Positions 1 through 49,856 of a DNA stretch of 64,000 bases are shown here, one piece after another (the stretch's first letter is position 1; every line of letters starts with the position of its first letter). This stretch comes from Cyanophora paradoxa CCMP329. Taxonomy: Eukaryota > Plantae > Glaucophyta. The notes below the pieces were generated by a model. It worked only from the letters and a program-made list of their open reading frames with translations, did no database searches and was not told the origin of the DNA. A program made the position numbers and the translations under genes. The stretch lies in assembly GCA_004431415.1 (NCBI GenBank), contig QPMI01000054.1, forward strand, positions 1-64,000. The letters run 5' to 3'.

Positions 1-1
1 G

Positions 2-244
2 GCTCGGCAGGCGACGCTCTCTTCGATGGACCAGGTGCAGCCGATCTTAGAGGAGCTGGTGATTAAGTACTCGCGCTACGTGACCCTGGGGCCCGAGGCG
101 CGCCTGGGGATGGCCCTGGTGCAGACGGTGCTGGCGGTGCACGCGGCGAACGCGAACCCGGAGGTAATGAAGGAGGTGACGGAGGCGGCGGCCTCGACGG
201 CGGCGGAGCCCAGGGCGGTGGGCGGCAAGTTCAACGGCCTTTGA
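2..244 (+). CDS. 3' end of a DUF5767-like conserved NCLDV protein (frame open to the window edge)
   Basis: QPILEELVIKYSRYVTLGPEARLGMALVQTVLAVHAAN resembles the recalled EELxxKY...PExRL...H.xN pattern of this viral family. The frame is open from position 2. Confidence 0.5.
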   Translation, partial: ARQATLSSMDQVQPILEELVIKYSRYVTLGPEARLGMALVQTVLAVHAANANPEVMKEVTEAAASTAAEPRAVGGKFNGL

Positions 245-284
245 GTGTAAACGCGTGTAATCAATTGCACCAAAAATTCACAAT

Positions 285-1075
285 TTATTCGTCCGAGCTA
301 CTGCATGGGGCTGCGTACATAGACTCGGGGTTTAGGTAGGGCTCGAAATCGGCCTCGTTGTCGTAGGGCTTGAAGGCCAGCTCGGGGGCGCGCCCGGCGA
401 AGCGAAAGGCGCCGACCTTGCACTGCTGCACGGCGAGGAAGGACCACTTGAGGCCGAACTTGCCCTCGGGGATGGCGTAGGCGGTGTCGATTTTAATGAG
501 CGCCGCCACCAGGTCTCCGGTGCCGATGGTGGCGCGCTCGGTGATGAGGTAGTTGGACATGTCGACGACGGGCACGGTCTTGCGCTTGCCGCCATCGTCT
601 GGGTGCGGATGCGCATGTTGAGTACTTGTAGAAGGCCTGGCCCGACTCCTTGTCGACCTTGATGCGCACGCTGGGCGTCTGCAGCACCGAGATCTGATCC
701 TTGGAGAGGAGCGGCCGGGCGAGACCTTGAGCTTGGCCTGGTTCTGCTGCACGAACTCGCAGAATTTCGCGTCCAGGGCCTCCAGCAGCTTGAGGAACTC
801 GTCCGCGGCTGGGTTCGTCTGGCCGTCGACGGCGCTGAGATCGGTGAGGTCCAGCGTGTAAAATCCGCCGTTTTCTTCCATGACGAAGGCCTTCTTCTCG
901 TCGCTCCACGCCTTGCCTTGCTCTGTGTTGATGCACGGGTTGATCGTGACCATGGGCGGCGCGTACATCATGAGGCCCTGCAGGCCGTCGTACTTGGCCT
1001 TGATGCGGCCGGTGGCGTCGATCTCGAAGGCGAGCTTGGCGGGTCGATCTCGTTGGCGTTGCGGACGGTGGCCAT
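285..1075 (-). CDS. Viral ssDNA-binding protein (T7 gp2.5-like OB fold, NCLDV DUF2738-type), with ~3 frameshifts
   Basis: Reconstructed MATVRNANEID(P)AKLAFEIDATGRIKAKY...EFLKLLEALDAKFCEFVQQN...IGTGDLVAALIKIDTAYAIPEGKFGLKWSFLAVQ, ending in an acidic tail. Indels near 1045, 720 and 615. Confidence 0.7.
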
Positions 1076-1140
1076 GTTTGCGTTAGCTTAGAGTGTGCTT
1101 CAGCCTAGCGCTAGAAAATATTTAAGGGCGCCCCACCCGA

Positions 1141-1180
1141 CTTCAGCTGACCTCGGGTGAGCGCTCAGGTGATTCAGGTA
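1141..1180 (-). promoter_or_regulatory. Cluster of TCAGGTGA/TCAGCTGA (E-box-like) motifs upstream of the SSB gene
   Basis: cttcagctga cctcgggtga gcgctcaggt gattcaggta, followed toward the ATG by the AT-rich aaatatttaa. A similar cluster occurs at 1521-1566. Confidence 0.45.
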
Positions 1181-1249
1181 AAACACGTGTTCAATTCACC
1201 ATCAGATCCTCTACGACGGCTACACGAATCGAGCTAATCTTGAACCTGC

Positions 1250-1459
1250 CTACAATGCACTTCTCTCTCCACAGTACGATCTCGTTCTTGAGGGGAGCAG
1301 TTGAATCCAATCATACTCATCGCCCTTGCGGTGCTCCGACGAAATGTCGCGAAGGAGCTTGCAGAAGTAGAACGTGTTTCGGTCGAACTCATCGTCGTAT
1401 ATGACGTATGCGAAGATGCCGAAGGTGAGACAGCAGGTGAAGTACGTGGGGATGCACAT
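1250..1459 (-). CDS. Small hypothetical viral protein (69 aa, hydrophobic N-terminus)
   Basis: ATG-started ORF with GC3-biased codons, preceded by the same motif cluster as the SSB gene. Confidence 0.45.
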   Translation of the reverse strand: MCIPTYFTCCLTFGIFAYVIYDDEFDRNTFYFCKLLRDISSEHRKGDEYDWIQLLPSRTRSYCGERSAL

Positions 1460-1520
1460 TCTTGATTTCTCTTGCTTTGAAGTGTGAGGAGAGGGCGCGG
1501 CGGGGCTGCGGTTTTGAGGC

Positions 1521-1645
1521 CGTTCAGGTGAGGGTCAGGTGAGCGCTCAGCTGAGTTTCAGGTGAGGGCAACTTGAAAATTCGGCGTCATTACGTCCGCG
1601 TCATTTACGTCAGCGTCATTTACGTCACGGAGTTGGGACTCGGCC
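1521..1645. promoter_or_regulatory. Divergent regulatory region: TCAGGTGA cluster plus CGTCATTTACGTCA (CRE/ATF-like) repeats
   Basis: Four TCAG(G/C)TGA motifs at 1521-1566, then cgtcattacgtccgcgtcatttacgtcagcgtcatttacgtcacggagtt at 1585-1635, a partial copy of the 2444-2533 module. Confidence 0.55.
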
Positions 1646-1718
1646 TGGCCCCCGGCCCAGGCCTCGCCCGTAAAAAAGGACTTGGACTTGGCGCCATTTT
1701 CTAAAGCTCTGCTGTACC

Positions 1719-2357
1719 ATGGAGCCGCTATCTCCCAGCTAGTCTCTCAGGGCGCCAAGCTCGACAAGGCCCTGAACATCTACCTTCAGCTGATCGAGCT
1801 GGCCTGGCCCGAGCCAATGATAGCTCAGGCCTGCAAATCGCTCCACGTGGCGTTCGATGCGCCGTTCTCAGGTGACCCGGATCAGGTGACATCCTGGACC
1901 AAGGAGGAGATAAAGGCCGACTTCGAGGCGCTTTTCTCATTTATGAGCAAGAAGTATGCCGAAATCGAAGCAGCTAAGGCCTCAGCAGCCGAAGGCGGTG
2001 AAGCCCCAGCCGAAGGCCCTGCCGGCGACCAAGGCACCGAAGTTCAAGGCGCTGGGCCCCTTGCAGAGGGCGAAGGCCAAGGCGGACCTGCGACCGCGTA
2101 GGCCCAAGGACATAGCCAAGGAGGCAAGCGGCCACAGGCCGGACTGGCCGGCGCCGGCGCCCTACCGCTACCTCAAGCTGGACAAGAGCAACGATACCGG
2201 CTTCACCAGGAGGAGGTGGCCTGAGCCCCTCAGGTGGCTGGAGCCAAGGGAGATCAAGTCCGGAGGCGGTATCGAGCTAGCGCTAGCGCTGGGCGGCGGC
2301 GGCGGTGCAGACTTGGAGGAGCAGGCCCTGCTAGATACCATCAACTTGGGCAAGTAG
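1719..2357 (+). CDS. Hypothetical viral protein (~210 aa, basic K/P/A-rich C-terminal half), frameshifted
   Basis: Joins ORFs 1682-2101 and 1956-2357 through indels near 1724 and 1980, giving MEAAISQLVSQGAKLDKALNIY...PKAVKPQPKALPATKAPKFK...INLGK. Confidence 0.5.
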
Positions 2358-2363
2358 AGCTGT

Positions 2364-3027
2364 GATATCTAGCTAGCTAGCGCTTGCTTAATTAACTCAA
2401 CTGAAGTTACCTGACATTTACCTGAAGGGTTGCGGAGGTTACCGAAGGGTCGCGTCATTTACGTCAGCGTCATTTACGTCACGGAGTTTGCCGGCGACTC
2501 GGGACTCGGGCCCAACTTCTCCCGGTAAGTTCGAGACTTGGAAAAATAGGGTATCCCTATTACTTATCGTTATTATTATTACTATTATCGTTATTCACAT
2601 TGAATGAATGCTTAAATCTATAAAAGCTGTACCAGTATCGGTGGCTACTAGTACTAAGCTAGTAGTACTAAGTAGTACCAAGTAGTACTAAGTAGTACTA
2701 CGTAGTACTAGCGGTACTAGTAGCTACTGGTCGTGACGAACTTACCGGGAGAAGTTGGGCCCGAGTCCCGAGTCGCCGGCAAACTCCGTGACGTAAATGA
2801 CGCTGACGTAAATGACGCGACCCTTCAGGTTAATTAATTAAGCAAGCGCTAGCGCTAGCTAGCTAGATATCGATACCACCTAGCTAGTAGCACTAGGACA
2901 CTAGGACACTAGGACACCGGGGGTACCCCCGCCGAGTTCAAGTCTCGAACTTACCGGGAGAAGTTGGGCCCGAGTCCCGAGTCGCCGGCAAACTCCGTGA
3001 CGTAAATGACGCGGACGTAAATGACGC
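2364..3027. repeat. Inverted-repeat module (90-bp arms at 2444-2533 and 2737-2826, AT-rich spacer, third copy at 2939-3027); candidate origin or terminal-repeat junction
   Basis: gaagggtcgcgtcatttacgtcagcgtcatttacgtcacggagtttgccggcgactcgggactcgggcccaacttctcccggtaagttcg and its reverse complement. Outer imperfect arms lie at 2364-2396 and 2835-2871. Confidence 0.9.
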
Positions 3028-3096
3028 AAATCCCATTGGAGCTACGTTCGCACACTCCGGACGCCTCCCACAATTTTCCAAGGTACCCAGCAAGCA

Positions 3097-3383
3097 TGGA
3101 CTTCACCGATTGCGCAGGTATCAAGCAGGAGCCTGAGGACCTTCTCACCGCCGCCGCCTCGGCGCCCAAGCAGCGCCGCCGCCGCGGGCCCAAGTCCCTC
3201 TGCTCCGAGCCCGAGATCCTGGCGGCTCCGGCGCGCGGGCCGGAGACCGTGGACCTGACCCTGGAGGAGCCGGCGCGCGGCCCGCCGCGCCTTCTGATCC
3301 TTGCGGCGGCGGCGGCCGCGCTCTACTACGCCGCCCGGCGCCTGGGCCCGCAGCTCTCGGGCCTGGTCCGGAACCTTTTCTAA
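3097..3383 (+). CDS. Small viral protein with C-terminal hydrophobic segment
   Basis: MDFTDCAGIKQEPED...LLILAAAAAALYYAARRLG. GC3-rich and packed tightly against the next ORF. Confidence 0.55.
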
Positions 3384-3394
3384 GTCCCTCCTCA

Positions 3395-3736
3395 ATGGAG
3401 GCCCTGCTAGATCTCATGGCCTTTGCGCTGCCCATCTTCTTCCTGGTGGGCCTCAGCCGCATGGAGCGCGAGGCGCGCCAGCCCGAGCGCGTCGAGCGCG
3501 GCCTCACCCCCGCAGAGCAGCGCAACCTCACCGAGTGGGACCTGGCGCTCATGGCCGGCCGCATGCTCGACGGCAACCGGCTCGAGCCGGGCCACCGCCT
3601 CAAGCTAGAGGACGGCGGCACGGCCCTCTGGGACGGCGAGGCCTGGAAGCACGATTCGACGGGCGAGCCGATGAAGCTGCTCGCCTCCGGCAACAAGTAC
3701 TGGCGCGGCGACTCGATGGAGTTCCGGCGCCCGTGA
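3395..3736 (+). CDS. Small viral protein with N-terminal TM/signal anchor (113 aa)
   Basis: MEALLDLMAFALPIFFLVGLSRM..., with coding-like codon bias. Confidence 0.65.
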   Translation: MEALLDLMAFALPIFFLVGLSRMEREARQPERVERGLTPAEQRNLTEWDLALMAGRMLDGNRLEPGHRLKLEDGGTALWDGEAWKHDSTGEPMKLLASGNKYWRGDSMEFRRP

Positions 3737-3784
3737 TTGCTAGTGATTTTCTGGTCCCTCTTCTAACCCTTCTACCAGCAAAGA

Positions 3785-4069
3785 ATGCCCGACCCCTCGC
3801 CCGACCCCGCCGCAGGTGCCGAGAGCGCGGGCAGCTCGGACGAGTACTCCGAGCTCACGGATCCCGACCCCGACGAGCCCGGCGACGCCTTCGCGACGGA
3901 GAACGAGCGCTCCCTCATGCGCGTCTACGAGGCGCTGCGCGAGGCGATCTACTGGGAGGATCCCCGCCTGGGAACCCTGATGAACTTTGCAAAGTTCGCC
4001 GAGTTCATGTTCGCTATGACCGTGCCCTTCACCCGAGTCGTGCTCTGGGATAGGAACAGGAACTGGTAA
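3785..4069 (+). CDS. Small acidic hypothetical viral protein (94 aa)
   Basis: Acidic N-terminus followed by ENERSLMRVYEALREAIYWEDPRLGTLMNFAKFAEFMF. Coding-like codon bias. Confidence 0.6.
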   Translation: MPDPSPDPAAGAESAGSSDEYSELTDPDPDEPGDAFATENERSLMRVYEALREAIYWEDPRLGTLMNFAKFAEFMFAMTVPFTRVVLWDRNRNW

Positions 4070-4096
4070 AGGCATTGAATACAACAGTACAGAGCC

Positions 4097-4471
4097 CTAC
4101 GAGCTAGAGCTGCTATCGCCCGAGTCCAGGCGCGCCTTCTTGGCCTTGGAGCGGCGGAGGCGGGAGACGTACTGCAGGCGCAGGTTGCGCACTAGGAGCT
4201 CGCCGGCCGTGGTGCCCGGCAGCCCGGGAACCGAGTCCGTGGGCAGCAGCTGTCCCTCGCGTATCGCCTTGTACGTCTTGCGCTTGTTGAATGCAACCTT
4301 CTCCGTATCCTCCGCGACCGGGACTTCCAGCGCCAGCGTGCGCTTGGCCTTCTTGACGGAGACTGCGTTCGCACGCTCCAGCTTCACTCCGGGCTCCAGG
4401 GGGGTAGGGGCGACTGCGTTCGCCACCGGGTTCTCAGCGAAGGAAACACGGGGGGAAGAGCCGCCGCGCAT
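4097..4471 (-). CDS. Basic hypothetical viral protein (124 aa)
   Basis: ATG ORF with a K/R-rich C-terminus (SRLRRSKAKKARL, NLS-like). Confidence 0.55.
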   Translation of the reverse strand: MRGGSSPRVSFAENPVANAVAPTPLEPGVKLERANAVSVKKAKRTLALEVPVAEDTEKVAFNKRKTYKAIREGQLLPTDSVPGLPGTTAGELLVRNLRLQYVSRLRRSKAKKARLDSGDSSSSS

Positions 4472-4483
4472 GGTTCGCTCGCT

Positions 4484-4884
4484 TTACCTAGCCTTTAGAA
4501 AATAGTCGAGCTGGGCGCTCTGCAGGCGCGCGCCCTGGTAGGCGCCGCGCAGCTGCCACGCGAGCCAGATCGCAAGGAGCACCGCGGCGACGCCGGCGGC
4601 GATCTTGGCGTAGTGCCAGCCCTTCATCGCAAGCTCCGGCACGGCCGCAACCGCCTGCCCGACCTTCACGCCCGCGGCGCCCGTCCGATCGATTCCCGTC
4701 AGCGTGCTGCCGAGTGCGCCCGCGGCCACGTCGGCCCAGGAAGCTTGCCGTCGTTCTTTAGGATGAGCTCGTTGTTCTTGCGCTCGATCGTCGTGCTGAT
4801 CGCCGCGGCCAGGTTGAAGCTCGGCGGCGGCTGCGCGCTCTTCGGTCCGAAGACCTTGGTCAGCACGGCGTCCACCCAGCCCAT
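4484..4884 (-). CDS. Viral membrane protein (MG- start, C-terminal TM), one frameshift near 4733
   Basis: MGWVDAVLTKVFG...KNDGKLPG joined to DVAAGALGSTL...HYAKIAAGVAAVLLAIWLAWQLRG. Confidence 0.55.
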
Positions 4885-4910
4885 CTTTGACCTAGACTTC
4901 GAAAAACTAT

Positions 4911-5390
4911 CTAAATGACCAGGCCGCGCAGGTACCAGACCATCAGGAGCGAGCCGCCCAGCGCCACCAGCAGCGGCAGGTGCCCGTCCACGGCGCGCCG
5001 CATGCGGTTGTCGCACAGCTCCTGGCAGCTCAGCCGGTTGGCCTCGTCGAAGTAGGCGCTCACGGCGTAGGGGCGGTCGGCCGGCGGGTGCAGCCCCCGG
5101 CCCAGGCACGGGTAGGCCTCCGCCTGGCGCCGCGCGGCCAGCGCCGCCGTCGCCGCGTGCGCCGCCTCCCTCTGCCCCGGCGCGATCGCCACGAGGGGCA
5201 GCGCCCCCACGCTCCTGCCCTTGCCCGCCCCCTTGATCGTTTTCAGCGACGGCGGCGCGGGATCCGCCGCCTTCACCCTGGGCCCCTCCGCCGCCGCCCC
5301 GCCCTTAGCCCTCGCCGCCTCGCCGATCTTGCTGCATCGCGAATCCGATTTGAACACGGTGCACAGCAGCTTCTCTACCGCGCTCGACAT
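4911..5390 (-). CDS. Cys-containing viral protein with C-terminal TM anchor (159 aa)
   Basis: MSSAVEKLLC...LSCQELCDNRMRRAVDGHLPLLVALGGSLLMVWYLRGLVI. Confidence 0.6.
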   Translation of the reverse strand: MSSAVEKLLCTVFKSDSRCSKIGEAARAKGGAAAEGPRVKAADPAPPSLKTIKGAGKGRSVGALPLVAIAPGQREAAHAATAALAARRQAEAYPCLGRGLHPPADRPYAVSAYFDEANRLSCQELCDNRMRRAVDGHLPLLVALGGSLLMVWYLRGLVI

Positions 5391-5485
5391 CTTCGAACGT
5401 GTAACGAGAATGAAGAAAATTTAAAAGGGAACGCCAACGGACTCGGAACTCGGAAAAGGGGGAGGGGAGAATGAACTTTGAAAAG

Positions 5486-5674
5486 TTAGCGCCCGGCGGG
5501 GCGCATGCCGGCCGCCGCCTGCGAGGCGCCGCCGGGGGCGTAGAGGGACTTGGCGGCGTAGCCGAAGCCCACGCCTATGACCGCCGAGGCCGTGGGGGTG
5601 CCGCCGAGGAGCCAGGTGAGGGTCGCGGCCAGCGCTCCTAGCGAGTAATGGGCAGGATAAGCTTCGAAGGCCAT
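5486..5674 (-). CDS. Small two-helix hydrophobic protein (62 aa)
   Basis: YSLGALAATLTWLLGGTPTASAVIGVGFGYAAKSLY. Confidence 0.5.
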   Translation of the reverse strand: MAFEAYPAHYSLGALAATLTWLLGGTPTASAVIGVGFGYAAKSLYAPGGASQAAAGMRPAGR

Positions 5675-5722
5675 CGCGGGACCGAATTGAGGGAGGGTTG
5701 AGAAAAAATACCGCCTCGGGCC

Positions 5723-8700
5723 TCAGTGGTGCAGGTGCCGGAAGCGCGCGTTGTCCTCGGCCTCCTCGCGCGCCGCCTGCTCCTCCGCCGCGTCGATCTC
5801 CGCCCGCGAGGCCTCCCGCGCCGCGGCCGACGCGTAGTCCTTGAGCACGGGCACGCGCCGGTAGCTGTAGCCGAGGCCCTTCGCCAGCCCCGCCGACTCC
5901 GCCTCGAACGCCCGCCAGCGCTCCGAGGCCTCCGCCCCGGCGATCTGGCCGGCGCGGAAGCCGGAGTCCAGCTCGGCGCGGAAGGCGATGGTGGCCTGCA
6001 GGCGCTGGGCCCAGAGGGCCTGGCGCCGCTCCTCCGCCTCGCGCGCCTGGCGCGCCGCCAGCGCCCGCCGCTCGGCCTCCTGCTGGGCCCCGAAGCCCTG
6101 GATCGCGGTGAGGACGGCGCCGGGGCCGGGGAGGGGGCTGGGGCCGTCGGCGCTCGCGGAGGAGGCCGAGCTCCCGTAGCCGCTCGGGCCCGCGCCGCCG
6201 TTCGTCGGGGTACCCTGCCCTTGGATCAGGAGGGGGGCGGGGGGAGGGGGGTACGGGAGGGAAGGCGGGGGTACGCGGGGCCGGACCTGGCGCGGCAGCA
6301 TCTCGTCGATGCGCTGCTGGCCGGGGCGCTGCTGGGGGGCCGTGGCGGGGGGCTGGGGCGGGAGGAAGGCCGGCGCCGAGTTGCGGGTGCGCTTGCCCTT
6401 GCCCTTGGTGTGGGGCTTGACGAGGAAGGGCCCGACGTCGGGCGCCGGGTCCTTGAACTGGGCGACGGGGATCGCGATCGCCTCCAGCGCCGGCTGGCTC
6501 TCGCCGAGGGAGAGCGGGGCCTTGGGGACGATGCCGCGGATGTAGGTCTGCCAGACGCCGCCGAGCTTGTAGGAGTAGGGGCGGCACCAGGAGCCGAAGC
6601 CGGCGAGGGTCTCGTCCAGCCGGCCGTTCTCGATGTCGGCGCCGACGGCGGCGGAGGTGTCGGGGCCCTCCGTGCGCGCGATGTACTCGACGATGCCCGC
6701 GACGCTCGTCATGTAGCCCTCCGTGTTCGGGGCGGCGACGTAGGTGGTGGGGTCGACGGCGCAGTGGGTGATGATGAAGCGGGTGAGGGGACAGGAGGCC
6801 GTCTCCTGCCAGAAGCCGAGGCGCTGCGCCCGCAGCCACGCCGGCTCGAAGGCCTGGATGCAGGAGGCCTTGCCGTCGGAGAGCGCGTGGATGATCTTCC
6901 ACGCGAAGGTGAAGGCCGCGACCATGAGCGCCGGCAGCTCGTTCTCGCGGATGTCGGAGTGGAGGTAGGTGCGCTTCTTGGCCGGCTTGTGGTCGAGGGG
7001 GATCAGGACGACGCGGGCGAAGAACTCGAGCATGCGGTTCTCGAGCTGCGCCGGGGCAAGTGAGAAAGGGCGCCGGGGAAGGGGAAGGGGGGCAGGGGAA
7101 CGGGCGCACCTGCGGGAAGCTGTTGCAGACGATGACAAGCACCTTGCGCGTAGCCTTGGTGCGCACATCGTCGCCGCGGACGTTCTTGAAGTTGCGGGAG
7201 TAGGCGTCGCCGGAGCGCATCTTGAGCTCCTCCTCCGAGCAGGCCTTAGGGTCGAGGCCCTCCGCCATCACCATGCAGATCGCCTCCTCGCCGCCGTGCT
7301 CCGAGAAGGCCGAGCCCTTGGAGGGGCGGTAGACGCAGACGCGGCCCGGCGGCAGGCACTCCGTCATGATCTGCGTCACCATCGACTTGCCTGTGCCCGA
7401 CTGGCCCTTGATGATGCCGCAGTACTGCAGCATGGCGCCCTCGGACGGCGGCTCGATCTCCGCGCGCGGCTCCCGGTCGAAGACGGGCTTGTCGCAGAAG
7501 TTCCACGGCCCGACGAGGTTGAAGGCGTAGAGGACGGCCGCCGCGTAGCCGAACTCGTCGGCCGTCACGTAGCCGTTGTCCGCCAGGTGCTTGACGACGT
7601 TGGGCATGAAGGGGTGCAGCATGCCGTACACGGTGGGCCAGTCGCAGGTCTCGGTCGCCTCCTCGATGCCCGCGGGCAGGCGCCCCTGGATGTAGCAGGT
7701 GTTCATGTAGCCCGCGTACCGCTCCCGTGCCTCCTCGTGCGTCATGACGAGGACGCAGGCGCTGCCCGTGCTGTCCTGCGGCGCCCGCACCACGAAATCT
7801 GCGCAAGGGGCGTCGGCGGGGGTACGGGGCGGGGCGCAGGGGTACGGGCGGCGCACGCGTGTCGCAGGCGAAGGCGAAGCCGGGGATGACGGGCATCTCG
7901 GGGCAGACGTCCTCGAGCTGGAGGGACTCCTCCACGAACGTGCGCGTCCGCCCCGAGAGCACCTCCTTCGAGAAGGTGAACTCGAAGGAGCCGGGGTTGG
8001 ACTCGTAGGTCTTGTGGAAGGTCATCGCCAGCAGCTGGATGACCTCCTTCATCGTCCCGCGCCCGGCGTGCCTGTTCGCGCTGACCTTGTCGTACACGAA
8101 GAGGTTCGGGAGCTCGACGTAGAAGGTGGGCGGGGAGTTCGGGCCGTAGGGTCTCTGGCGCACGATCCGCTGCGCCGGCAAAAGGGGGTTAGCGGGGTTC
8201 GAACGCGGGGAGGGGGGCGCACCGGCCGAAGGCGGCTCGGGCCCAGCGCCTTAAGCAGCTGGGCCACGGCCGCCTCCGGCCTCTAAGGGGGCGGGGCGCG
8301 CAGCTAAGGGGGGCGGGGCGCACGTTGTTCTTGACGAAGAGGCGGAGCGCATCCTGAATGGCCGCCTCCTTCTTGGACTTGTTGTCCTTGCTGTACGTTG
8401 TCACGTCGTCGTACTTGGACATGTCGATCTCGGGCGCCTCGCGCGGCTGCGCCGCCAGCTCCGCCCGCGCCAGCTCCAGCCTGGTGGCGCGCGGGGGCTC
8501 GCCGTCGCTCTCCGACGCCTGGCCGTCGTCGTGGTCCGCCTCCGCCTCCGCCCGCTGATCGCGCAGCAGCTGCCGCTCGCGCTCGCGCCGCTGCTGGGCC
8601 CGGCGGGAGAGGCGGCCGGCGCGGGGGGCCGGAGGGGGCGGAGGGGGCATGTGGCCGAGGGAGGAGGCGGGCGTGGCGACGGGCGTGCCCCGCGGCGGCG

Positions 8701-11201
8701 AGGGGATGGGGCGGGCGAGGGGGGTACCCTGGACGGAGGGCGGCGGGCGCTGCGAGGGCTGCGAGGGGCGGAAGGGACTGAAGGCCGAGGGGTTGCCGCT
8801 CGGGCGCCAGGAGACGTCGGAGGCGGCGGGGCTGGCGGGGGGCACGGGGGCGGGCGGGCGGCGGGGGGAGACGAGGGGCGGCCTGGGGCCGGCGTCGCCG
8901 GGCTCGTCGTCCGAGAACTCCTCGATGGGCGGCGGCGGGGCGCCGTCGAGGGAGGGGGAGGGCGGGAGGGGGTAGAACTCGTCGACGGGGGGCTCGGGCT
9001 CGAAGGTGTCCCCCGCCCCCGCCTCCACCGTCGCCGCCAGCTCCGCATCGGGCTCGCCCTCGCGCTCGCGCTCGCGCTCCAGCTCCATCGCGTACTCCTC
9101 CGCCACCTCCAGCTCGCGCGAGGCCTTCGCGTCCGCCGCCGCCGCCAGCGCGGCCTCCTCCTCCATCTCGCGCTCGGCCTCCAGCTCCTCCTCTGAGGGC
9201 AGGGTCATTCCTTTGCGCCTCTGGAACGCCCTAGGCTCAGAAATTAGGGGCGGGGAGGGCGCACCGGCCGCCTTGGGGGCCGCCGCCTCCATCTCCTCGC
9301 CGAGATCGCGCCGCGCCGCCGGGGCACCCGCCTCCTCCTCCTCGAACCGCAGGTCGATGTAGGCGGCCTTGCCCTTGCCCTTGCCCTTCGCCTGGGCCTG
9401 GGCCTGGGCCACGCGCATGGCGCGCGCGAGGCCCTCCGCCGTGATCATGCTGCCGCCGGCCCGGGCGCCCGAGGCGGAGGCCGTCGCCTCGCCGATCGCC
9501 GCCTGGAAGGCCGCGGCCATCGCCTGGCCGGCGCGCGGCAGGCTCCGCGCCCGCTCCAGCTCCTCCTCCGTGAAGTCCAGCGCCCGGGCCGCGGCGGCGG
9601 CCTCGGCCTCGCGCTCCGCCTCGGAATCCGAGTCGGAATCCGAGGACTCCGCGGCCGCGAGCATGGGGCGGGGGCGGGAGGCGGCGGCGGCGGCGGCGGC
9701 GGCCGCCTTGTCGAAGACGGGGACGAAGAAGGTGAGGGCGAGGGTGCGCCGCGGCACCACGTACTTCACGGCGCCGTGGATCATGGGCCGCCCGTGCGAG
9801 TCCGGCATCGAGCACCGGCGGATGACCTGCGAGGGGGTTTAAATGGCATCTAAATAGTCTAAATAGCATCTAAATAGCATCCAAATAGAAACGGCTGGAA
9901 ACGGCGCACCTGCACGCGGTCGCCGATGGTGACGCCGGGCACCTCGAACTCAGGAACCAGGTCGAAGGCGCAGATGCCCTGGCGCCCGTGGCGGTCCCGG
10001 CACGTCCGGCAGGCCGCCTCCAGCACGATGCGGATGGCGTAGGCGTCGGTGAGGACGCCGGTGTCCGGCCGCTCGCCCCAGACCGCCGAGCTCTCGTGGC
10101 GCGTGATGAACGCGCGGCTGTTCCGCATGATGCAGCGCGCCTCGACGCCCATGATGCCCTTCGCCAGCCTCTGCGGGCCGGCGGGGGTCGGCGGGGAGGG
10201 GCGGCCGCGGCTGCACGGGCGGCCGGGGGCGCACCTCGGGCGTGTAGGCCGGGTCCGAGCTGAGCACCAGCAGCCAGAGCAGGTGCGGGGCCGCCTCCGC
10301 CATGCGGTTGAAGTAGAACTCCTCCGGGCCCGCCAGCAGGCCAATCGTGCGCCACTCGCCCTTGGCGATGTGCCGGGGCACGGCGCCCATGAGCAGCCGC
10401 AGGCGCTGCGCCGCGAACAGCCGGCGGGCGTCGGCATCGCGCCCGGGCTTCGGCTTGCTCGGCGTGTCGAAGTTCTCCTCCGTCATGTTCAGCGCCGCGT
10501 GCATCGCCCGCACGTCCGCGTCCTGCGAGCGCGGCGGCGCCTCAGCCGCTGCGAGCCGAGCGCGCGAGGGAGAAAGAGGCAGCGAGCACCTCCGCGAGCC
10601 GCAGCCGCGACAGGACGGAGTCGATGGAGAACTGCACCGACGGGCCGGGGGCACCCTCGGCGTTCAAAGTCCGCGCCGCGGCCAGCTTGCGCTTGCGCTC
10701 GGCCAGCTCGGTCTTGCGCAGCACATCCTTGCTGTTCGGGCTGAACTGCATGCCATCCTCCAGCGCACGCGCCTGCGCCTCCTTCGCCTGGTCGCTGATA
10801 CCGGCCTCGAACACCGTCCAATCGACGCCGAAGCTGTCGCCGATGCAGAGAACGTCGTACAGCGTGTTCTTCGCCAGCTTAGCCGGGATCTCCGGAGGGA
10901 GCGCGAGCCGAGACATGCTGCTGCCGCCGATGCTGCCGCCGGTGCTGCGCGCGCTCTGCTGGGAGTGCTGCGCGCGCTGCGAAGGTTCTGGCGCCAAGGT
11001 TCCAGCCGATTTGAACGAGCGGCCTGCATTGCATCGCCGGACTGGGCAGTCAAAAAAAGCGAGAAACCGACCGGGGTTCGAGCCCAAGGGGGGTACGCAT
11101 TTTGAAGGGGGGGAGAAGCGGGCTTCAAGTCTGAGTCTTCGCGAGTTGGGAAGGGAACAAGCCAGCGGGGGTACGACGTTGAACGGAATCCGTTGAGACA
11201 T
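5723..11201 (-). CDS. Large multi-exon protein (~1,550 aa) with an SF3 (D5-like) helicase domain; start uncertain (10916-11201)
   Basis: Walker A GIIKGQSGTGKS (~7385-7415), Walker B ICMVMAE, motif C VLVIVCN, Arg-finger-like EFFARVVLI. Frame-restoring or in-frame GT-AG introns at 10523-10599, 10171-10234, 9827-9909, 8283-8323, 8170-8222, 7799-7856, 7046-7109 and 6215-6286. Confidence 0.8.
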
Positions 11202-11221
11202 CGCGGGCAGTAACACTCGCG

Positions 11222-13699
11222 ATGCAGGCGGCGACCTTCCGCTCGTGCGCGAAGCAGCAGCAGCCCGGCGAGCAGGACAGCATAGCCCGCGATCTCGGCA
11301 GCCTGTCGGCGGAGGAGGCGCTCAACGCGATGACCTGCGATAGCGTGTTCAACTCGGCCGGCGTGCCGCGCTTCGAGCCGTTCGGCGGGCTGAAGAAGAT
11401 CCAGAACACGGACGGCCACCCGAAGCGCTTGAAGACCAAGGGCCAGTTCACGCCGGTGAATAAGTTCAACGAGGTTCGCGGTTTCGCCCGCACCGCTTCG
11501 GCCCCGGCTCACATGCCCCGGCTCGCGTGCCCCGCGCGCAGATCGTGCCTTACAGCATTCACGAGCTGCCGGAGCATGTGAAGGCGAAGTACGGCTTCAC
11601 GCACGGCGATGTGGCGCTGTTGCTGATGTCCGACAATGCGGCGGCGGGCTGCTTCAACAGCATCGCGCTCCATCGCGATTTCCATCCGCGCGCGATCTTC
11701 TCCGGCACTCCGGAGCAGAAGGAGTTCCTCGCGGACCTCAAATCCGGCAGCGGCGGCGCCCACGGGGTGAGGGCCCTTCCCTGCGCTCGCGTGCCCGCGC
11801 TTGCTCACGCCCGGGCCGCCGCAGCTCTTGATCGCGCGGGATCAGTGCCTGGCGTCGGTGACGGAGAAGGAGAAGGCCAGCCCGTCCGGCCTCGGCGTTC
11901 GGTGCGATTACGTCATCGTCACCAAGCGCATCAACCCGACGTACGCCAAGAAGTACGACCTCAACTTCGTCTACGTGAAGGAGGGGCCGCCGGCCTCGCA
12001 GTACACCGTCACCGTCCAGGCCGGCATCTGCGCCGGCGAGACCATCCAAGGCGCGTACCACGGCGTCGGCACGCTCCCGTCCGGCGGCTTCTTCGACGTC
12101 GTTGATCACATGTTCCTCTCCTGCGCCGATGACATTTACGTGCGCGAGAGCCCGCCCTTTCCCCTTTCCCCTGCCCCTGCGCGCGCTAAGGTCGCGTCCG
12201 CAGGTCGGAGAGAACCCGAGCGCGGAGAGCCCGCTGGGCTACGCGTACTGGCTGGTCAGCGTGCAGAAGGTGCTCTCCTGCGCGGCCCTTCTGAAGTACG
12301 CCAGCGTCTGCGACTCCGGCATGCGGCCCCAGCTCCAGCTTCTCGTGGATCAGGGCCGGAGCGACGAGACCCGCCAGCGCCACCGCGATCTCGCGCGGAC
12401 GGCCGTGCTGAAGCTGGAGGAGGTTCTGCGCGAGGGCCACCCAAACGGGCCGGCCCGCGCCCGTGAGATCCTCTCGGCGGCCATCTCCGTGATCGTCGGC
12501 GAGCTCTCGCACACGGTCCGCCGCCGCCCCGCTTAGCCCGCCTCTCCTCCCTGACCCCGGGCCCTCGGAGCGCAGGAGGAGTCGGACGTTCTCACGGCGC
12601 GGGCGGACGAGTTCCAGCGCCAGGCGGAGAAGATCAAGTGCTGGTACGAGAAGGTGAAGAAGGCGGAGGAGACGGACCTGCGCGACTGGGGCAGCAAGAG
12701 CGGCGACGCCGAATTCGACCGCGACAAGCTCAAGCGCGTCTTCTTCTGGATGCGCATCTGCGCCAAGCTGGAGGCGCTGATGGACGAGTGGCACATCGAG
12801 GGCGTCCGTCTGGCGAAGGCGATGATCGCCATGGAGTGGGGCCACGGCCACCCGGCGCGCAAGGAGTGCAGCATGCTGGCCAAGGAGATCGGCCGCCGGG
12901 GCCGCTACATCAAGGAGGTGGCCTACGGCATCGAATGTGCGTCCGCCCCGCCCTTGGCCTGCGCCCCCGCCCTTGGCCTGCGCCCCGCGCTCTCCCCGCT
13001 CACCCCCTCTCCCGCAGTTACCATCCCGCTCGTCCAATTCTTCCAGCGCGAGTTTGTGCTGATCCAGGCCTCCATCATCAAGATCGGGTCGCTCTCCGCC
13101 AAGGAGGTGGACGAGGCAAGGGACGAGGGCCAGGCGGAGGCGGAGGCGCGCTGGGACGATGCGGCGTTCAGCGCCGTCTGGGGCGTCGGGACAACGCGCT
13201 CTCGCCCCCCGCCCCGTTCGGCTTCAGCGGGCGGCCCGCGCTGGCGTTCGACGAGCACGGCCTCCCCGAGCTGGCGGAGGCGGACGCCGTCGGCTTCAAC
13301 TGGGCGACGTTCGAGGCCCGCATCGACGAGAAGGCGAAGGAGGTGCAGATGCGGCTGCTGGAGGAGGGCCTCGTCCCGGCGCCGGTGCCCGCGCCCTTCC
13401 CCCTTCCTCTCCTCCTCGGCCCCTCTCACCGCCTCCTCCAGCCCCCGGCGTCCTCGGCTCCGGCGCCCTTGGCTCCGGCCCTCTGCCCCACCTACGGAGA
13501 GAGGTGCGCCCACGGCGCCGATTGCGCCCTCAACGGCTCCCACCTCCTGCCCGCCAAGAAGGCCCGCCTCGGCCTCTTCTCACCCCACCCTCTCAGCCCG
13601 GTGAGTGACTCTGAATCGGAGGGCTCGGAGGCCTATAGCACGCCCCGCGACCCCGACGCCCCGCCCCACAAGGCCGGCGCCTTCGGCTTCTGTGAGTGA
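11222..13699 (+). CDS. Multi-exon orphan protein, divergent from the helicase gene; may extend to ~14202
   Basis: Coding-like exons joined by GT-AG introns at 11474-11541, 11767-11824, 12140-12203, 12516-12575 and 12937-13017. Probable indel near 13185. No family recognised. Confidence 0.65.
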
Positions 13700-14256
13700 C
13701 GCCCCCGCGCAGGCCCTGCCGACGCCGCCCGTCGCCAACCGCACCGTCTTCGTCCAGGTGAGTGCCAGGGCTGCCGCGAGTGGCGGCTCGAGAACTTCTC
13801 GGCTCAGGTCCCCGCCACGCAGCAGGCCGGCGCGATCCCGGCCTCGCCGCCCGTGACCGTCGACGTCGAGGGCGGTATGTTCGAGATGGAGCTGGAGCCG
13901 GCGCCCTCGCAGGCCCTCGCCACCCAGGGCTCGGCCCCGGGCTCGCCGCCGCCGTCCCAGCCCTCCCTCCCGCTGGTGCACGCCAACTCCAACATCTTCG
14001 AGGGCTGCTGAGGGCCCTGAAACGGTGCGCGCAGGCCCGTCCCGCCCTCCCAGAGCAAGTGGTCCACAACGCCATAGTGGACGCCATGTGGGATAACAGG
14101 GGCCGCCTCCCCCACCCCTTCCGCTACGTCTCTATGGCCCTCCGCGGCCTCGCCTTCCCGCCCCCTGCACCGAGCAGCTCAACCAAATCCTGCGCGGTCT
14201 GATTCATTACAGACTCGCCTACCCGGCCTGGGCCTGAGCTACACCAAGCTACGGTG

Positions 14257-14392
14257 AGTCCGACCAAGCCCTGTCCCGGGTCCCGGAAAATTTATATTAA
14301 GATTCCAAAGACCTGGGACAGAAGTAGTCTGACCAAGAGACGTGTCCGGACCCTCCCAATAATCATATAGAGTATTGGAAAGGTCCGGACAC
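14257..14392. terminator. Twin 51-nt hairpins between convergent genes (putative 3'-end signal or protein-binding site)
   Basis: ctgtcccgggtc...gacctgggacag (14271-14321) and gtgtccggacc...ggtccggacac (14342-14392). Each is preceded by agtc(c/t)gaccaag. Confidence 0.5.
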
Positions 14393-15056
14393 TAGAGGAG
14401 GGCGTACGACTTAAACTCGCGCAGCGCCGCCTGCTCCTCGCTGAGGTTCTCTGACTTCATTCGATCGCTGTAGGGCTCGGGCGGCGTGCCCTCCTTGACG
14501 TGCATCCAAAATAGATGTAAGCACTTCCTCATGAGCTTGATGTACCTCTCGTCCCGTCTGACGTACCACGTTTGCACGCGCAGAGGAGTGAAGCAAAAAA
14601 GTTCGGCCCACTCGCGGCCCGTTATGTCCAGCAGGCCCTGGAGCTGGGGCATGTAATAAGTTGGGACCTTTTCGTAGAGTTCTTGTTTGTAGGGGCATTT
14701 TATTTCAAGTATACGATCGCTTCCAATCAGCCCGTCCGGGCTGCCGCCAGGAAGGGCAGTTCCTTATGTTCGTGCAATCCAGTATGTTGCACGTCCACGT
14801 TGTTGTTCGACGTTTTGTAGAGAGAGACCGCGAAGGGCTCATAGTCATGCCCGTAGGTTAGCGCAGGGTTGTCGAAGTTGTTTTCCTCCGCTATGCCGCT
14901 TAGCTCCGCCCAGAGGCGGGCCCTGGATTTCCAGGGATTTATGCCGCACGCAGCCGCAAAGTTCGAGGCAGTTAGCTTTTCGCGGCGCGCCGCGTGCCAC
15001 GCCGCGCTCCCCTGTTGCAAGTTCTCGCAAGTCTCGCAATCTGTATCGGTATGCAT
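14392..15056 (-). CDS. YqaJ-like viral recombinase / lambda-type exonuclease, one frameshift near 14742
   Basis: QQGSAAWHAARREKLTASNF...YGHDYEPFA...PFLAA(S)PDGLIGSDRILEIKCPY...YYMPQLQGLLDIT. All hallmark YqaJ motifs are present once one base is restored. Confidence 0.92.
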
Positions 15057-15107
15057 GACTTGGTCTCGCAGTAGCGTTTAGAATTTCTTGATGTGTGCAA
15101 TTGCAAA

Positions 15108-15804
15108 TGTCGGATGCAGAGGAAGCGCCCAAGGACGTGATCGCACAGTTCATAGATCAGGTCAAGGACCTTAGACGCTGGGTGGTAGAGCAGGCCTCGC
15201 GACCGAATCGACAGCGCCAACCCTGGCCGGTGCTGGAGCTGGCCCGGGCAGGGTGGCTGGACAGCCATTACAACTATGGCGGGCCTCATACGTCCGGAGC
15301 CACGACGAGGGCAGGATTATCGACGAGTTCAAGCGCATCTGGTTCGCCCTGGGCTCCAAGCTCAGCATACTCTCGACCCTCCCGGACCACATTCGCATGC
15401 AAATCCTCGAGCGGTACGCGAAGGCAAGGGACTCGGAATGGGACGACGTAAATTTGCGCGACCTCTCGCGCTTGCGCTCGGCTGTGACGGCGTACGTCAC
15501 GAACTATGAGTATCACACCAAAAAGCCCCAATTCGAAGTTGAGCCGATTCCGGCAAATCTGGTACCCCTGGGCTGGGAAGAGTACCCCGAGTACTCGTGG
15601 AACAGGGGCCTCAACCCCCGGCGCCAGGCCCTGCCAGCCCCGCCCGCCCCACCGATAAACGCCCCCGCCCCACGTGACGTCGGGCGAGACATACGCGAAT
15701 GGGAGGAGTGGAGCAACGACCCGAAGAACTGGCTACCCGAGGAGGCGGAGATGCGCAAGCGCGCGAGGCTGATGCCCGGCTACAAGTACCCCGACCGCGA
15801 GTAG
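15108..15804 (+). CDS. Hypothetical viral protein (~230 aa), frameshifted near 15280
   Basis: Joins ORFs 15095-15451 (MSDAEEAPKDVIAQFIDQVKDL...) and 15253-15804 (SHDEGRIIDEFKRIWFALG...). Confidence 0.5.
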
Positions 15805-15841
15805 GGGGTACAGGTAGAAATTCTCAGCGAGCCGCGAGCGA

Positions 15842-16556
15842 ATGTCGTACGGCGATCAGGAAGCATGGTTCAAGCTACACCGCCTCTTTCCTGATAAATT
15901 CGGCAATGCGCGCTACCCCCTCAACCTAATGACGCGAGTCAACCGGCGGACGAGGGACTTCAAAATCGAAGTGTTCTCTTCCTCTCCCGAGAGCGGCCGC
16001 TCCGCGGACAACGACGCTATGGCATGGCTGTACGGCTTTGTGCAGCCTCGGGTTGGTACTAGCCCGGCCACAGTCGAAATAGAGAGCTACTACAACGATT
16101 ACGGGCCGCAGGGGGGTACGGGACGCCCGAGCAGAATAACGCGATGCGGGGGTAGGCAAAATCATGCTGCGGGCGGCTGTGAACGCGCTGCAACGCTCCG
16201 GGCTCATTAGCTCGTCGGACCCGGGCCAGCACCCGTTGGAGCTCAGGGCCCTCCCAGACGCAGTGGATTACTACCAAAGGGAATTGAACCTGCGTGAGAG
16301 ACAGGTCGACTATAGGCCGTCCCTAATACCCATGGAGGGTACAGTGCAGAACATCATCGACAACACGTACAACGTGGCCGTTCGCTGGCGCAAAGCGGCG
16401 GCGGATCTCGTAAAGGGCAACTACAGGGACCTCGCAAACGAAGACAACCCCGTGGGGGAGTACATGGAGCTGGCAAGCGGGAGCATCGTACCCCGCCGGA
16501 GGCCCCCATGGCCCCACCCCGACCTCGAGTGGGGACCGTCGCACTTCGGCCAGTGA
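15842..16556 (+). CDS. GNAT-family acetyltransferase (two 1-nt deletions in G runs at ~16113 and ~16150)
   Basis: The restored sequence ...NNAMRGVGKIMLRAAVNAL...LELRALPDAVDYYQRELNL fits the GNAT acetyl-CoA-binding motif A (RGxG) and the C-terminal A..(F/Y)Y helix. Confidence 0.65.
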
Positions 16557-16769
16557 GGGGGTACAGCATTCAGTTAGAGTCTGAGCATAGTTAGAGGCCG
16601 GAGGCCCCGAGGGGTACGTCGGACGTGTTAGTCCCCGTGCCTCCCCGAATGCAATATAACAATGCAACCTCCGCAACGCGTGACTCATCAACCTCCGAGG
16701 GTTAACAATACATTGACAGCGAAGGGGCAAGCTCGAGAGCTCAACGCTTCACAAAGGCCCACATATATA

Positions 16770-16830
16770 GCTAGTAGTAGACTACTACTAGACTAGTACT
16801 AGTCTACTAGTAGTACTAGTCTAGTACTAG
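16770..16830. repeat. TAGTAC/CTAG low-complexity palindromic tract
   Basis: ctagtagtagactactactagactagtactagtctactagtagtactagtctagtactag. A similar tract lies at 2645-2730. Confidence 0.75.
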
Positions 16831-17652
16831 CACTGCCGGCGCCGCAGTGCGGCAGTGCAGCGGCACTTAGTGACTGCACTGGCAGCCCAGTGGCATGGCA
16901 GGCTCTTGACATGTGGCCACTGGCCACCGGGCCGATGAATCCCAAATTCCCATGCAAATTGATGCAATTCGTTTGAAAGAGTTTTTATTTGGGGTACAGC
17001 ATTGTTGACTTCCGGCGTCTTCCGCAAGCTATAGAGGCGGGGGCCCCGGGCTCGATCGCGAGCCTCCAGTGCCCTCCACGCTCGAGCCCGAATTGCCAGC
17101 TCGAGCCGAGCTCGAGCCGGGAGTCCGGGACCCCTCGAGCCGAAAGCCGGCCGCGGCTAGCACTCGAGCGGGTGGAGGAAGGGGGTACGTAGTGCCAGTG
17201 CCACTGTGCCAGTCTTGTATAACATCGATATATATACTAGTAACTTCGTAATATTCGGCAATTCGACGACAAACGGCACCCTCATGCATATGTGATCACA
17301 AAGCCCCACCCAGCTCGAGCCGGCGCCGGCTGATCATATATATATAATTCATGAGCTGCAGCTGTGCCCCTACGTACTAGGTCTTCGACTCGCCCCCGCC
17401 CCCGCTCGTCTCAGGAGGTGCAAGGTGGGGTCTAAAGTAGGGACGCTGGCAGAGTACAAAAAATATATAATTATATATAACTTAGTAAGTAATACTCAGC
17501 GAGCATATATACAACTAAGTATAATGCTAGGCGTAGGCGGCTAGGCCTGGGCCTGCGCGCAGCGCCGCCCGGCGGCCGCCCACAGTGCCTCCGCCCCGCC
17601 CGGCGAACTGCACCGCCGCCTGCACCTCCGCCCCGCGGGCCGGTGCCAGGAG

Positions 17653-17830
17653 AGCTGCGCCGCCGCCTGCCGAGCCGCGCCGCCGCCTGCCGAGCCGCGC
17701 CGCCGCCTGCCGAGCCGCGCCGCCGCCTGCAGAGCCGCGCCGCCGCCTGCCGAGCCGCGCCGCCGGCCGGCTGAGCCGCGCCGCCGGCCGGCCGATCATG
17801 AGCTGAGCTGCCACGCGCGCGTCGCGCCTC
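17653..17830 (+). repeat. 20-bp minisatellite (GCCGCCTGCCGAGCCGCGCC, ~6-7 units) plus unique tail
   Basis: Tandem units are directly visible. Positions 17781-17830 are identical to 29041-29090. Confidence 0.9.
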
Positions 17831-17831
17831 A

Positions 17832-18437: not shown

Positions 18438-18438
18438 C

Positions 18439-49671: not shown

Positions 49672-49711
<40 letters not shown>

Positions 49712-49856
49712 CCTGCCCTCTGAGTGCCGGCAGGGGTGCCTGGGGTCGATCAGCCCGGGGCGCAAGGCGGACGCGGCGCGGCTGGGCCTGCGGACGATGC
49801 TCGCCGGCTCCCTCGCCCTCTGCATGACCGCCGCCGTCGCCGGCATCCTCGTCTAG
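47247..49856 (+). CDS. Concentrative nucleoside transporter (CNT/SLC28, NupC family), many small introns
   Basis: ISWQPVLWG..LQF, VLPTLVFFSAFISVLYY, MTGGFATISG, HLLAASVMSTPA, LNEFIAY, YALCGFANLGSIG. Confidence 0.93.

Follow-up and report, generated by a model that had tools for sequence, protein, structure and literature searches.

A palindromic region with tandem TGACGT sites in a multi-copy virus-like element of Cyanophora paradoxa: a candidate enhancer and replication origin

The window analysed here comprises positions 1 to 64,000 of contig QPMI01000054.1 (forward strand; assembly GCA_004431415.1) from the glaucophyte Cyanophora paradoxa CCMP329. Close to its left edge lies a large non-coding palindrome inside a multi-copy, virus-like element; it is built around four modules of ~90 bp with tandem TGACGTAAATGACGC sites. 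By analogy with the control regions of other DNA viruses, we propose that this palindrome probably acts as an enhancer/promoter region with sites for basic leucine zipper (bZIP) factors and may double as a replication origin, a tentative reading to which we assign a probability of about 0.4. The proposal builds on directly observed features, namely the repeat anatomy, the internal position within a multi-copy unit, modules upstream of ATGs, an AT-rich core and spliced genes.

An inverted-repeat search of the window found two 90-nt arms, 2444–2533 and 2737–2826, which are 100% complementary and lie 203 nt apart. The elements of the region are given below, where genes A and B are the genes to the left and right of the palindrome, TRF is Tandem Repeats Finder and ORF is open reading frame.

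1–16740 (unstranded): multi-copy repeated unit containing the palindrome; it continues past the left edge of the window, and its right end, at ~16.70–16.74 kb, is approximate.
1584–1690: diverged module copy 1, with three 15-nt GCGTCATTTACGTCA units at 1584–1627, a GC-rich segment and a TAAAAAAGG tract.
2364–2443: outer imperfect left arm, GATATCTAGCTAGCTAGCGC..TTAATTAA..TTGCGGAGGTT, with frequent stop codons in all frames; it overlaps the 3' end of gene A transcripts.
2444–2533: left arm, with two 15-nt units (2452–2481) and a 52-nt GC-rich segment ending in CCCGGTAAGTTCG.
2534–2736: asymmetric spacer of 203 nt, the left half with 26% GC (2526–2625), the right half with (AGTAGTACTA)x5.
2737–2826: right arm, the exact reverse complement of 2444–2533.
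2827–2871: outer right arm, here shorter than the outer left arm; GACGCGTCCGCAACCTCCGCAACCTTTCA precedes 2829 in other copies.
2872–2938: linker, (CACTAGGA)x3.4 (TRF).
2939–3027: third module copy, oriented as the right arm, with 15-nt units at 2998–3027.

An earlier, sequence-only reading of the window had described the perfect arms and the 203-bp spacer, and the search bears this out over 90 nt at 100%. The two further copies that it had pointed to were also recovered: the one at 2939–3027 pairs inversely with 2452–2540 (89 nt, 99%), its segment 2946–3027 also pairing directly with 2737–2818 (82 nt, 99%), and the diverged one, placed at 1585–1690, aligns over 1597–1670 (74 nt, 77%). Its claim of tandem repeated sites in each module holds as well. 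With up to one mismatch, the 15-mer TGACGTAAATGACGC has 8 matches in 64 kb, all within 1598–3027, where 0.00 are expected (100 shuffles), and the 52-nt GC-rich half of the arm has 3 matches in the window versus 0 expected. Counted by TRF, the 15-nt unit is present in 3.0 copies at 1584–1627, 2.0 at 2452–2481, 2.0 at 2789–2818 and 1.9 at 2999–3027. The canonical module consists of two to three such units, a ~50-nt GC-rich segment and GTAAGTTCGAGACTTGG with an A-rich tract after it. The left arm has this form, as do the third copy, in inverted orientation, and copy 1, with some divergence; the right arm departs from it at its inner flank.

The arms are the core of a ~500-bp imperfect palindrome, 2364–2871, whose outer parts, GATATCTAGCTAGCTAGCGC...TTAATTAA, pair at 80–96%; outward, the arms are extended by 24 nt at 96% and 46 nt at 80%, reaching 2364 and 2871. 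As a single strand, this 508-nt region folds at −194.8 kcal/mol, compared with −61.8 ± 4.6 for shuffles (z = −29). The window as a whole is GC-rich eukaryotic DNA (69% GC), and the stretch 2526–2625, with 26% GC, is its lowest-GC 100 nt; outside the palindrome, the next lowest value in the repeated unit is 41% GC over 100 nt. The spacer, in which TRF reported (AGTAGTACTA)x5.0 at 2661–2710, holds no ATG-started ORF of at least 30 amino acids (aa). Compared with its own reverse complement, the spacer gives 58% identical columns, a score reached by 12 of 500 mononucleotide shuffles, and its left half scores 14 against the reverse complement of its right half (versus 9.0 ± 1.5); this self-match stems largely from common TA(C/T)TA words, and the predicted fold of the spacer consists of local hairpins only. 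A poxvirus-type hairpin junction was ruled out, the spacer being non-palindromic.

Two of the four modules occupy promoter-like positions, 69–88 nt upstream of ATGs. The site cluster of copy 1 ends at 1631, 88 nt upstream of the gene A ATG (1719), and the module itself ends 29 nt ahead of that ATG; the cluster of the third copy ends at 3027, 69 nt upstream of the gene B ATG (3096), an earlier in-frame ATG of gene B (3021) sitting inside the last 15-nt unit. These two modules (1584–1631 and 2998–3027) place a tandem TGACGT core within ~100 nt upstream of a gene. The hexamer TGACGT occurs 33 times in the window, 7 of these in 1598–3027, and the 15-nt unit, TGACGTAA-A-TGACGC, holds two TGACG cores. 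TGACG and TGACGT have been described as sites bound by plant TGA bZIP factors (PMC5022239).

A second class of repeated motif, TCAGGTGAG, distinct from the TGACGT units, was found in tandem at 1524–1568 and again at 1165. Tandem TCAGGTGAG and TCAGGTAA motifs, which resemble E-boxes or 5' splice sites, were noted in neighbouring intergenic regions (1524–1568, 1150–1181 and 2404–2425), and the TCAGGTGAG pattern fits promoter motif classes. At least 118 loci in a metagenome collection contain the bare 15-mer, with a single match in all 80 listed, as expected by chance and hence uninformative, and the double 15-mer had no match in viral contigs. Rfam gave a chance match alone (MIR7526, 26 bits vs 110), and a scan for bacterial-type promoters and terminators stayed at chance level.

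Coverage was assessed by aligning short-read contigs of public runs to the window: DNA runs X1, X2 and X3, and probable RNA runs X15 and X16, whose RNA status is a guess from the GT..AG joints in their contigs, the record carrying no RNA label. Summed contig depth over 1–17342 is 165–2027 (X3) and 44–747 (X1), compared with ~20–25 and 4–9 over 18010–20000; the unit has ~10–50 times the depth of flanking DNA, contig depth not being equal to copy number. Beyond the unit there are single contigs of depth 13.1 (16745–17404) and 19.9 (17836–20000). EukProt holds 24 gene models of a helicase-like (P-loop) protein of the unit, on 21 contigs, at least 40 gene A models in C. paradoxa and 31 sequences of a third family, DUF5767. 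It is safe to conclude that the unit is present in tens of copies. The proteins around the palindrome are 95–100% identical to many EukProt gene models (accessions EP00741_Cyanophora_paradoxa), paralogues are 98–100% identical, and the element family is young.

The position of the palindrome inside the unit follows from gene order. On tig00020938, tig00020564 and tig00020855, the gene numbers of the P-loop gene and gene A differ by 5, 6 and 4, in keeping with the order in the window: P-loop gene, three small ORFs, gene B, gene A. For 7 of the 9 EukProt DUF5767 representatives, gene A lies 2–5 gene numbers from DUF5767 on the same contig. The order across the palindrome (P-loop protein ... gene A ... 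DUF5767) recurs on at least three other contigs, these counts being lower bounds, with one accession named per sequence. Neither the 15-mer nor the 52-mer of the arm has a match outside 1598–3027, hence none at the right end of the unit at ~16.7 kb.

Some smaller likenesses to the palindrome were noted at that end. The 11-mer TTGCGGAGGTT of the outer arm (2430–2440) recurs once, inverted, at 16666–16676 (2 matches in the window vs 0.01 expected), and this inverted copy adjoins a TGACTCA (AP-1-like) site. In X3, a contig of depth 619 leaves out 16602–16688, and many copies may lack that 87-nt stretch. Just beyond the unit, in DNA of single-copy depth, a TAGTAC/ACTAGT-rich palindromic tract (16770–16830) is akin to the spacer (AGTAGTACTA)n; these two are the only such clusters in 64 kb.

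DNA contigs of X2 and X3 match 2597–2766, from the spacer into the right arm, without a mismatch; every bin over 2384–2918 has depth in both runs, and X1, in 667-nt bins, has depth across 2002–3335. The spacer contig has a depth of 345.9 in X3, compared with 13–20 for the single-copy flanks, and therefore the spacer is not host DNA caught between two insertions. An RNA contig on 1967–2386 and loose ends at 2440 and 2829 show a longer, more symmetric arm in other copies; GCGGACGCGTC (behind 2440) and GACGCGTCCGCAACCTCCGCAACCTTTCA (before 2829) are reverse complements over their common part. In both DNA runs, a variant contig links opposite strands at 2352 and 2887, the inverted repeat being longer there, and the symmetry of the palindrome is retained in variant copies. 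Substitution rows over the palindrome region (n = 40) include 15 in 2061–2315 and 10 in 3200–3305, with 0 in 2316–3199.

The same contigs bear on the genes at either side. The window is without single bases at 306, 588, 621, 707, 1040, 1291, 1473, 1589, 1643 and 1724; further 1-nt deletions occur at 2918, 13187, 14160 and 15280, at 2353 in part of the depth, and elsewhere. All or nearly all short-read depth carries the extra base at these sites, and the frameshifts of the flanking ORFs are therefore errors of the long-read assembly, not marks of pseudogenes; for annotation, the apparent frameshifts stem from assembly and not from decay. The additional C behind 1724, for example, is present in all DNA depth, and with this base restored the ATG at 1719 is in frame with the ORF 1577–2101. 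The genes of the unit are as follows.

2–244 (+): C-terminal end of a DUF5767 protein (~240–270 aa protein); Pfam 21.5 bits, below cut-off.
285–1082 (−): ORF whose language-model features are like those of the giant-virus clusters DUF5871/DUF2738 (score 0.95, of low recognition value).
~1250–1455 (−): small ORF.
1719–2357 (+): gene A, ~212 aa, frameshifted in the window by 1-nt assembly deletions.
3096–4069 (+): gene B, with one GT..AG intron, 3733–3815.
4097–5390 (−): small ORFs.
5726–10916 (−): 1519-aa P-loop protein (GQSGTGKS), candidate SF3/D5-like helicase, with a gene model of 7 mapped blocks.
11338 to ~14250 (+): gene C, intron-rich.
14727–15056 (−): N-terminal part of a YqaJ-like nuclease (PF09588, E = 3.2e-18, 66.9 bits vs cut-off 22).
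15107–16556 (+): three ORFs.

A full-length DUF5767 paralogue, P0061, reaches 50.3 bits in Pfam against a cut-off of 26.9; one source lists the family once, in a giant-virus genome table (PMC12085832). The sequence-only reading had placed viral genes on both sides of the palindrome, which stands for DUF5767 on the left (50 bits, in the paralogue) and YqaJ on the right (3e-18) and falls short for the helicase, whose family is assigned by language-model features. A DUF5767 homologue, P0064, with 74% identity, was found on a 3422-nt contig of an ENA assembly; judged by this match, relatives of the element exist outside the EukProt C. paradoxa set. Pfam gave no known family for gene A and no match for the ORF 285–1082, gene B, the gene C exons or the small minus-strand ORFs. 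Four loci hold distant YqaJ relatives at 36% identity, and no inverted repeat of 35 nt or more was found at them. A ~30-aa motif (..FGVDWTVFEAGISDQAKEAQ..) at the N-terminus of the P-loop protein (10916–10750) recurs in gene C (13283–13372, near the C-terminal third) with 50% identity (tblastn), perhaps marking a domain common to both proteins that could bind DNA. Where gene C and the YqaJ gene converge, a cluster of loose ends lies between their 3' ends, 14268–14402 (both DNA runs), a region structurally variable among copies; 14269–14338, for instance, is missing from other copies.

Contigs of the two probable RNA runs cover several genes of the unit, genes B (3096–4069) and C (11338–14300) at depths of ~60–180. 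They contain GT..AG joints in gene B (3733–3815, the joint 3732/3816 being seen in a contig) and nine in gene C (11338 to ~14250), with two further joints, 4714–4812 and 4858–4930, among the small genes after gene B. The introns of the unit, including the nine of gene C, are short (57–188 nt). So many spliced introns would not normally be expected in an endogenous virus and point to complete adaptation to transcription by the host; from the spliceosomal GT..AG introns and the probable-RNA cover, sites for host-type factors are to be expected. One RNA contig spans 1967–2386, overlapping the outer left arm. Cover by X15 and X16 on 2387–2811 is almost nil (depth 0.22 in one X16 bin), missing cover not counting as evidence, and that in 2812–2918 arises because the 3' end of gene A matches the inverted outer arm, together with another transcript (loose end 2846).

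From this anatomy the following mechanism is proposed. A bZIP-like factor of the host or of the element would bind the TGACGT(AA) sites and activate genes A and B. With 337 bp between their centres, the two inverted clusters of sites could place initiator/helicase assemblies head to head, and these assemblies would flank an easily melted, AT-rich core serving as the replication origin of the element. In its anatomy the region has the layout of a palindrome-type viral origin: an AT-rich element, with the GC minimum of the window at 26%, lies between the inverted clusters 2452–2481 and 2789–2818, and genes of possible replication role are nearby (the YqaJ nuclease, the P-loop protein with D5/DUF5906-like features and the DUF5871/DUF2738-like ORF). 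Intramolecular gene conversion may keep the arms perfectly identical, or the family may be too young for them to have diverged, and such perfect 90-bp arms might also let the core invert in flip-flop fashion. An internal origin or enhancer had been the second option of the sequence-only reading; it is plausible, fits the anatomy and is the one we prefer.

Several observations weigh against an enhancer that is also an origin. Both bZIP binding and the initiation of replication at the palindrome go beyond the anatomy, and we infer them. The window shows a single region of this kind, the unit continuing beyond its left edge. The arms, which make up two of the four modules, have no downstream ORF and turn their GC-rich sides inward, so that a pure promoter role fails for them. 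The absence of substitution rows within the palindrome may partly reflect short contigs and weaker detection there. Depth of the spacer contig (2597–2766; 345.9 in X3, 1680 in X2) is ~1/3 to 4/5 of that of neighbouring single contigs (387–741 and 2160–4332), and some copies may lack the spacer. An RNA contig starts at 3088, close to gene B, and this is probably a graph break, as a DNA contig also begins at 3081; contig ends of the RNA runs are not readable as transcript starts. The candidate helicase is D5/DUF5906-like by language-model features (0.97), with only AAA_22 in Pfam, at 18 bits against a cut-off of 27, and nothing in PHROGs, NCBIfam or PDB sequences; in hhalign against phage P4 alpha, the Walker A motif alone aligns (probability 2%). 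Its AlphaFold single-sequence model is unusable (pLDDT 34), and neither the single sequence nor the alignment found a relative among viral contigs. Its identification as a helicase is, at this stage, a lead.

The nearest competitor, somewhat less probable and in our view doubtful, is that the region is regulatory only, a promoter/enhancer cassette that was duplicated and once inverted, with no part in replication. The palindrome and its AT-rich core would then be by-products, possibly a terminator or insulator between the gene A 3' end and the gene B promoter. Much of the evidence above suits this explanation: two modules precede ATGs at a distance typical of promoters, TGACG sites are a classical component of bZIP-controlled promoters (PMC5022239), stop codons interrupt every frame of the outer arms, which overlap the gene A RNA contig (1967–2386) at its 3' end, and a second tandem motif, TCAGGTGAG, marks neighbouring intergenic regions, as would be expected of promoter motif classes. 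Perfect arms, moreover, need no selection, because the family is young (paralogues 98–100% identical). What it leaves unexplained is why the window's most AT-rich 100 nt should lie between the inverted pair, why the symmetry persists in variant copies, and why two cassettes face a spacer without an ATG-started ORF of at least 30 aa.

The first option of the sequence-only reading, two terminal repeats joined end to end, did not hold up well, and we consider fused termini unlikely. Here the arms would be the terminal inverted repeats of a linear virus, fused or processed at a concatemer or circle junction that became fixed and integrated, and the palindrome would be a packaging or resolution site. 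With their outer parts, the arms (~135–190 nt) are within the length range of polinton-like virus terminal repeats. Unit-length concatemers would be expected to give an identical junction in many copies, and since contigs are blind to molecule ends, a junction of this kind could have been fixed. Joined terminal repeats, however, should lack a unique centre, and here 203 asymmetric nucleotides, themselves multi-copy, separate the arms. No module copy is found at the right end of the unit, the left end lying beyond the window; the other module copies, at distances of 209 nt and 854 nt from the arms, are found ahead of genes; and the gene order across the palindrome recurs on other contigs. The part of the unit inside the window also shows no integrase, protein-primed polymerase or packaging ATPase.

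More improbable still is a nested, non-autonomous foldback or MITE-like (miniature inverted-repeat transposable element) insertion, 2364–2871, carrying a captured promoter fragment. Long inverted arms around a short non-coding centre would suit such an insertion, and a palindromic GATATC at both borders could mask a target duplication. Apart from GATATC, however, no direct repeat is found at the borders and no clear target-site duplication is present, and the module is confined to 1598–3027 within 64 kb. X3 depth over 2384–2811 (578–1173) shows no excess over the flanks (1040–1435 to the left, 631–975 to the right); as it does not exceed that of the flanking genes, there are no extra palindrome copies outside the unit, and the scattering independent of viral genes that the sequence-only reading had foreseen for a MITE is not seen. 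An artefact of long-read assembly, which the many 1-nt deletions of the window relative to short-read contigs might suggest and which that reading had likewise raised, is scarcely credible, since short-read contigs of three runs cover the palindrome (exact matches of X2 and X3 over 2597–2766 with depth in every palindrome bin, X1 in coarser bins) and variant copies have the same inverted architecture.

The unit as a whole is a virus-like, probably polinton-like, element, for which membership is not claimed. Polinton-like viruses integrated in Phaeocystis have a YqaJ-like recombinase and a DUF2738/5871 protein among their genes, according to bioRxiv 10.1101/2022.07.28.501842, and two further papers report both polinton-like viruses and insertions of giant viruses from C. 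paradoxa (PMC12220804, PMC12344493). The YqaJ-like recombinase and DUF2738/5871 gene content are common to the element here and to polinton-like viruses of algal genomes, from which it differs in having spliceosomal introns, in that no capsid or packaging genes were seen in its window part, and in the placing of its repeat, theirs sitting at the ends and this one being internal. A scan of the ORFs in 1–18.4 kb revealed no double jelly-roll major capsid protein, penton protein or packaging ATPase, although introns and assembly frameshifts fragment the ORFs and the unit continues leftward. The words 'virus' and 'viral' do not occur in the C. paradoxa genome paper (PMC6704402), and the supplements of PMC12220804 give a C. 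paradoxa element only under another identifier, without contig names of the tig type. No description of the palindrome region was found in the literature on Cyanophora endogenous viruses and polintons, although other papers may exist.

Beyond the unit, the window contains a long interspersed nuclear element (LINE; 18439–25909), with ORF1 at 18439–20598 and an endonuclease and reverse-transcriptase ORF2 at 20561–25909; its part up to 20000 (ORF1 only) has roughly single-copy depth in the DNA runs. Two arrays, 17559–17844 and 28214–29000, share one 20-nt tandem repeat; they are 10.5 kb apart and flank the LINE. Long poly-C tracts are found at 46005–46060 and 49670–49715, and stretches of 0.80–0.86 GC at 35–36 kb, 53–54 kb and 56–60 kb.

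To our knowledge, the cis-acting sites (origins, enhancers, packaging sites) of polinton-like and other mid-sized endogenous protist DNA viruses are essentially unknown, and the maintenance and expression of such elements are therefore mostly unknown too. The palindrome is a concrete, testable candidate in a species amenable to axenic culture, and the element around it is young, exists in tens of copies and has cover in contigs from the probable RNA runs. Should it be an origin, such elements would join host-type transcription-factor sites to an unwinding element, as herpesviruses and baculoviruses do. The fuller claim, that this is the internal, host-factor-dependent origin and enhancer of a previously undescribed, intron-bearing, transcribed, polinton-like endogenous virus family in a glaucophyte, is a shade less probable than a purely regulatory role; if true, this class of eukaryotic, helicase-encoding virus-like elements would gain its first candidate for an internal origin. 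If the region proves to be a promoter cassette only, TGACGTAAATGACGC would still be a defined motif for bZIP-type regulation in glaucophytes.

Known systems offer partial parallels. In adenoviruses, the inverted terminal repeats, with which the sequence-only reading had compared the region, carry TGACGT (ATF) sites beside an AT-rich replication start at the genome ends, used with a protein-primed polymerase; the repeat here is internal, and no protein-primed polymerase was found in the window. The ori and crr of phage P4 (NC_001609 annotation) are closer in being internal direct and inverted short repeats needed for replication by the phage's own primase-helicase, and differ in that the P4 repeats are iterons of 8–10 nt, not bZIP-like. 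The P-loop protein, for its part, has no detectable homology to P4 alpha beyond Walker A.

As-1/ocs elements of plant pararetrovirus and T-DNA promoters may be compared for their tandem TGACG (TGACGTAA...TGACGC) in a mobile or viral promoter with use of host bZIP factors. The TGACG motifs of as-1 start 12 nt apart, and the 15-nt unit has a possible likeness to that element. In the element here, TGACG starts are 9 nt apart, the host is a glaucophyte, and the sites also occur in a large inverted pair.

Baculovirus homologous regions (hrs) consist of several dispersed arrays of ~72-bp units with 30-bp imperfect palindromes, bound by viral IE1. Hrs have been described as palindromes combined with CRE-like and TRE-like sites (PMC13513840) and as origin and enhancer at once (PMC4535591). 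The likeness lies in non-coding palindromic repeats with bZIP-type sites, as proposed here; the differences are that the present region is single, has 90-nt perfect arms and a 203-nt spacer, and is accompanied by no baculovirus genes.

Herpesvirus lytic origins (HSV-1 oriL/oriS; oriLyt of EBV, KSHV and HCMV) have an AT-rich-centred palindrome between genes and near replication genes, where flanking transcription-factor sites, including bZIP/ATF sites, aid initiation, such that enhancer and origin are one. The C. paradoxa element has no herpesvirus genes or origin-binding-protein boxes; its arms are longer, its centre is a 203-nt asymmetric spacer, and it is a multi-copy element of ~17 kb or more. 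Palindromic control regions of this kind are known from other DNA viruses; the one described here lies in an undescribed element family of a glaucophyte.

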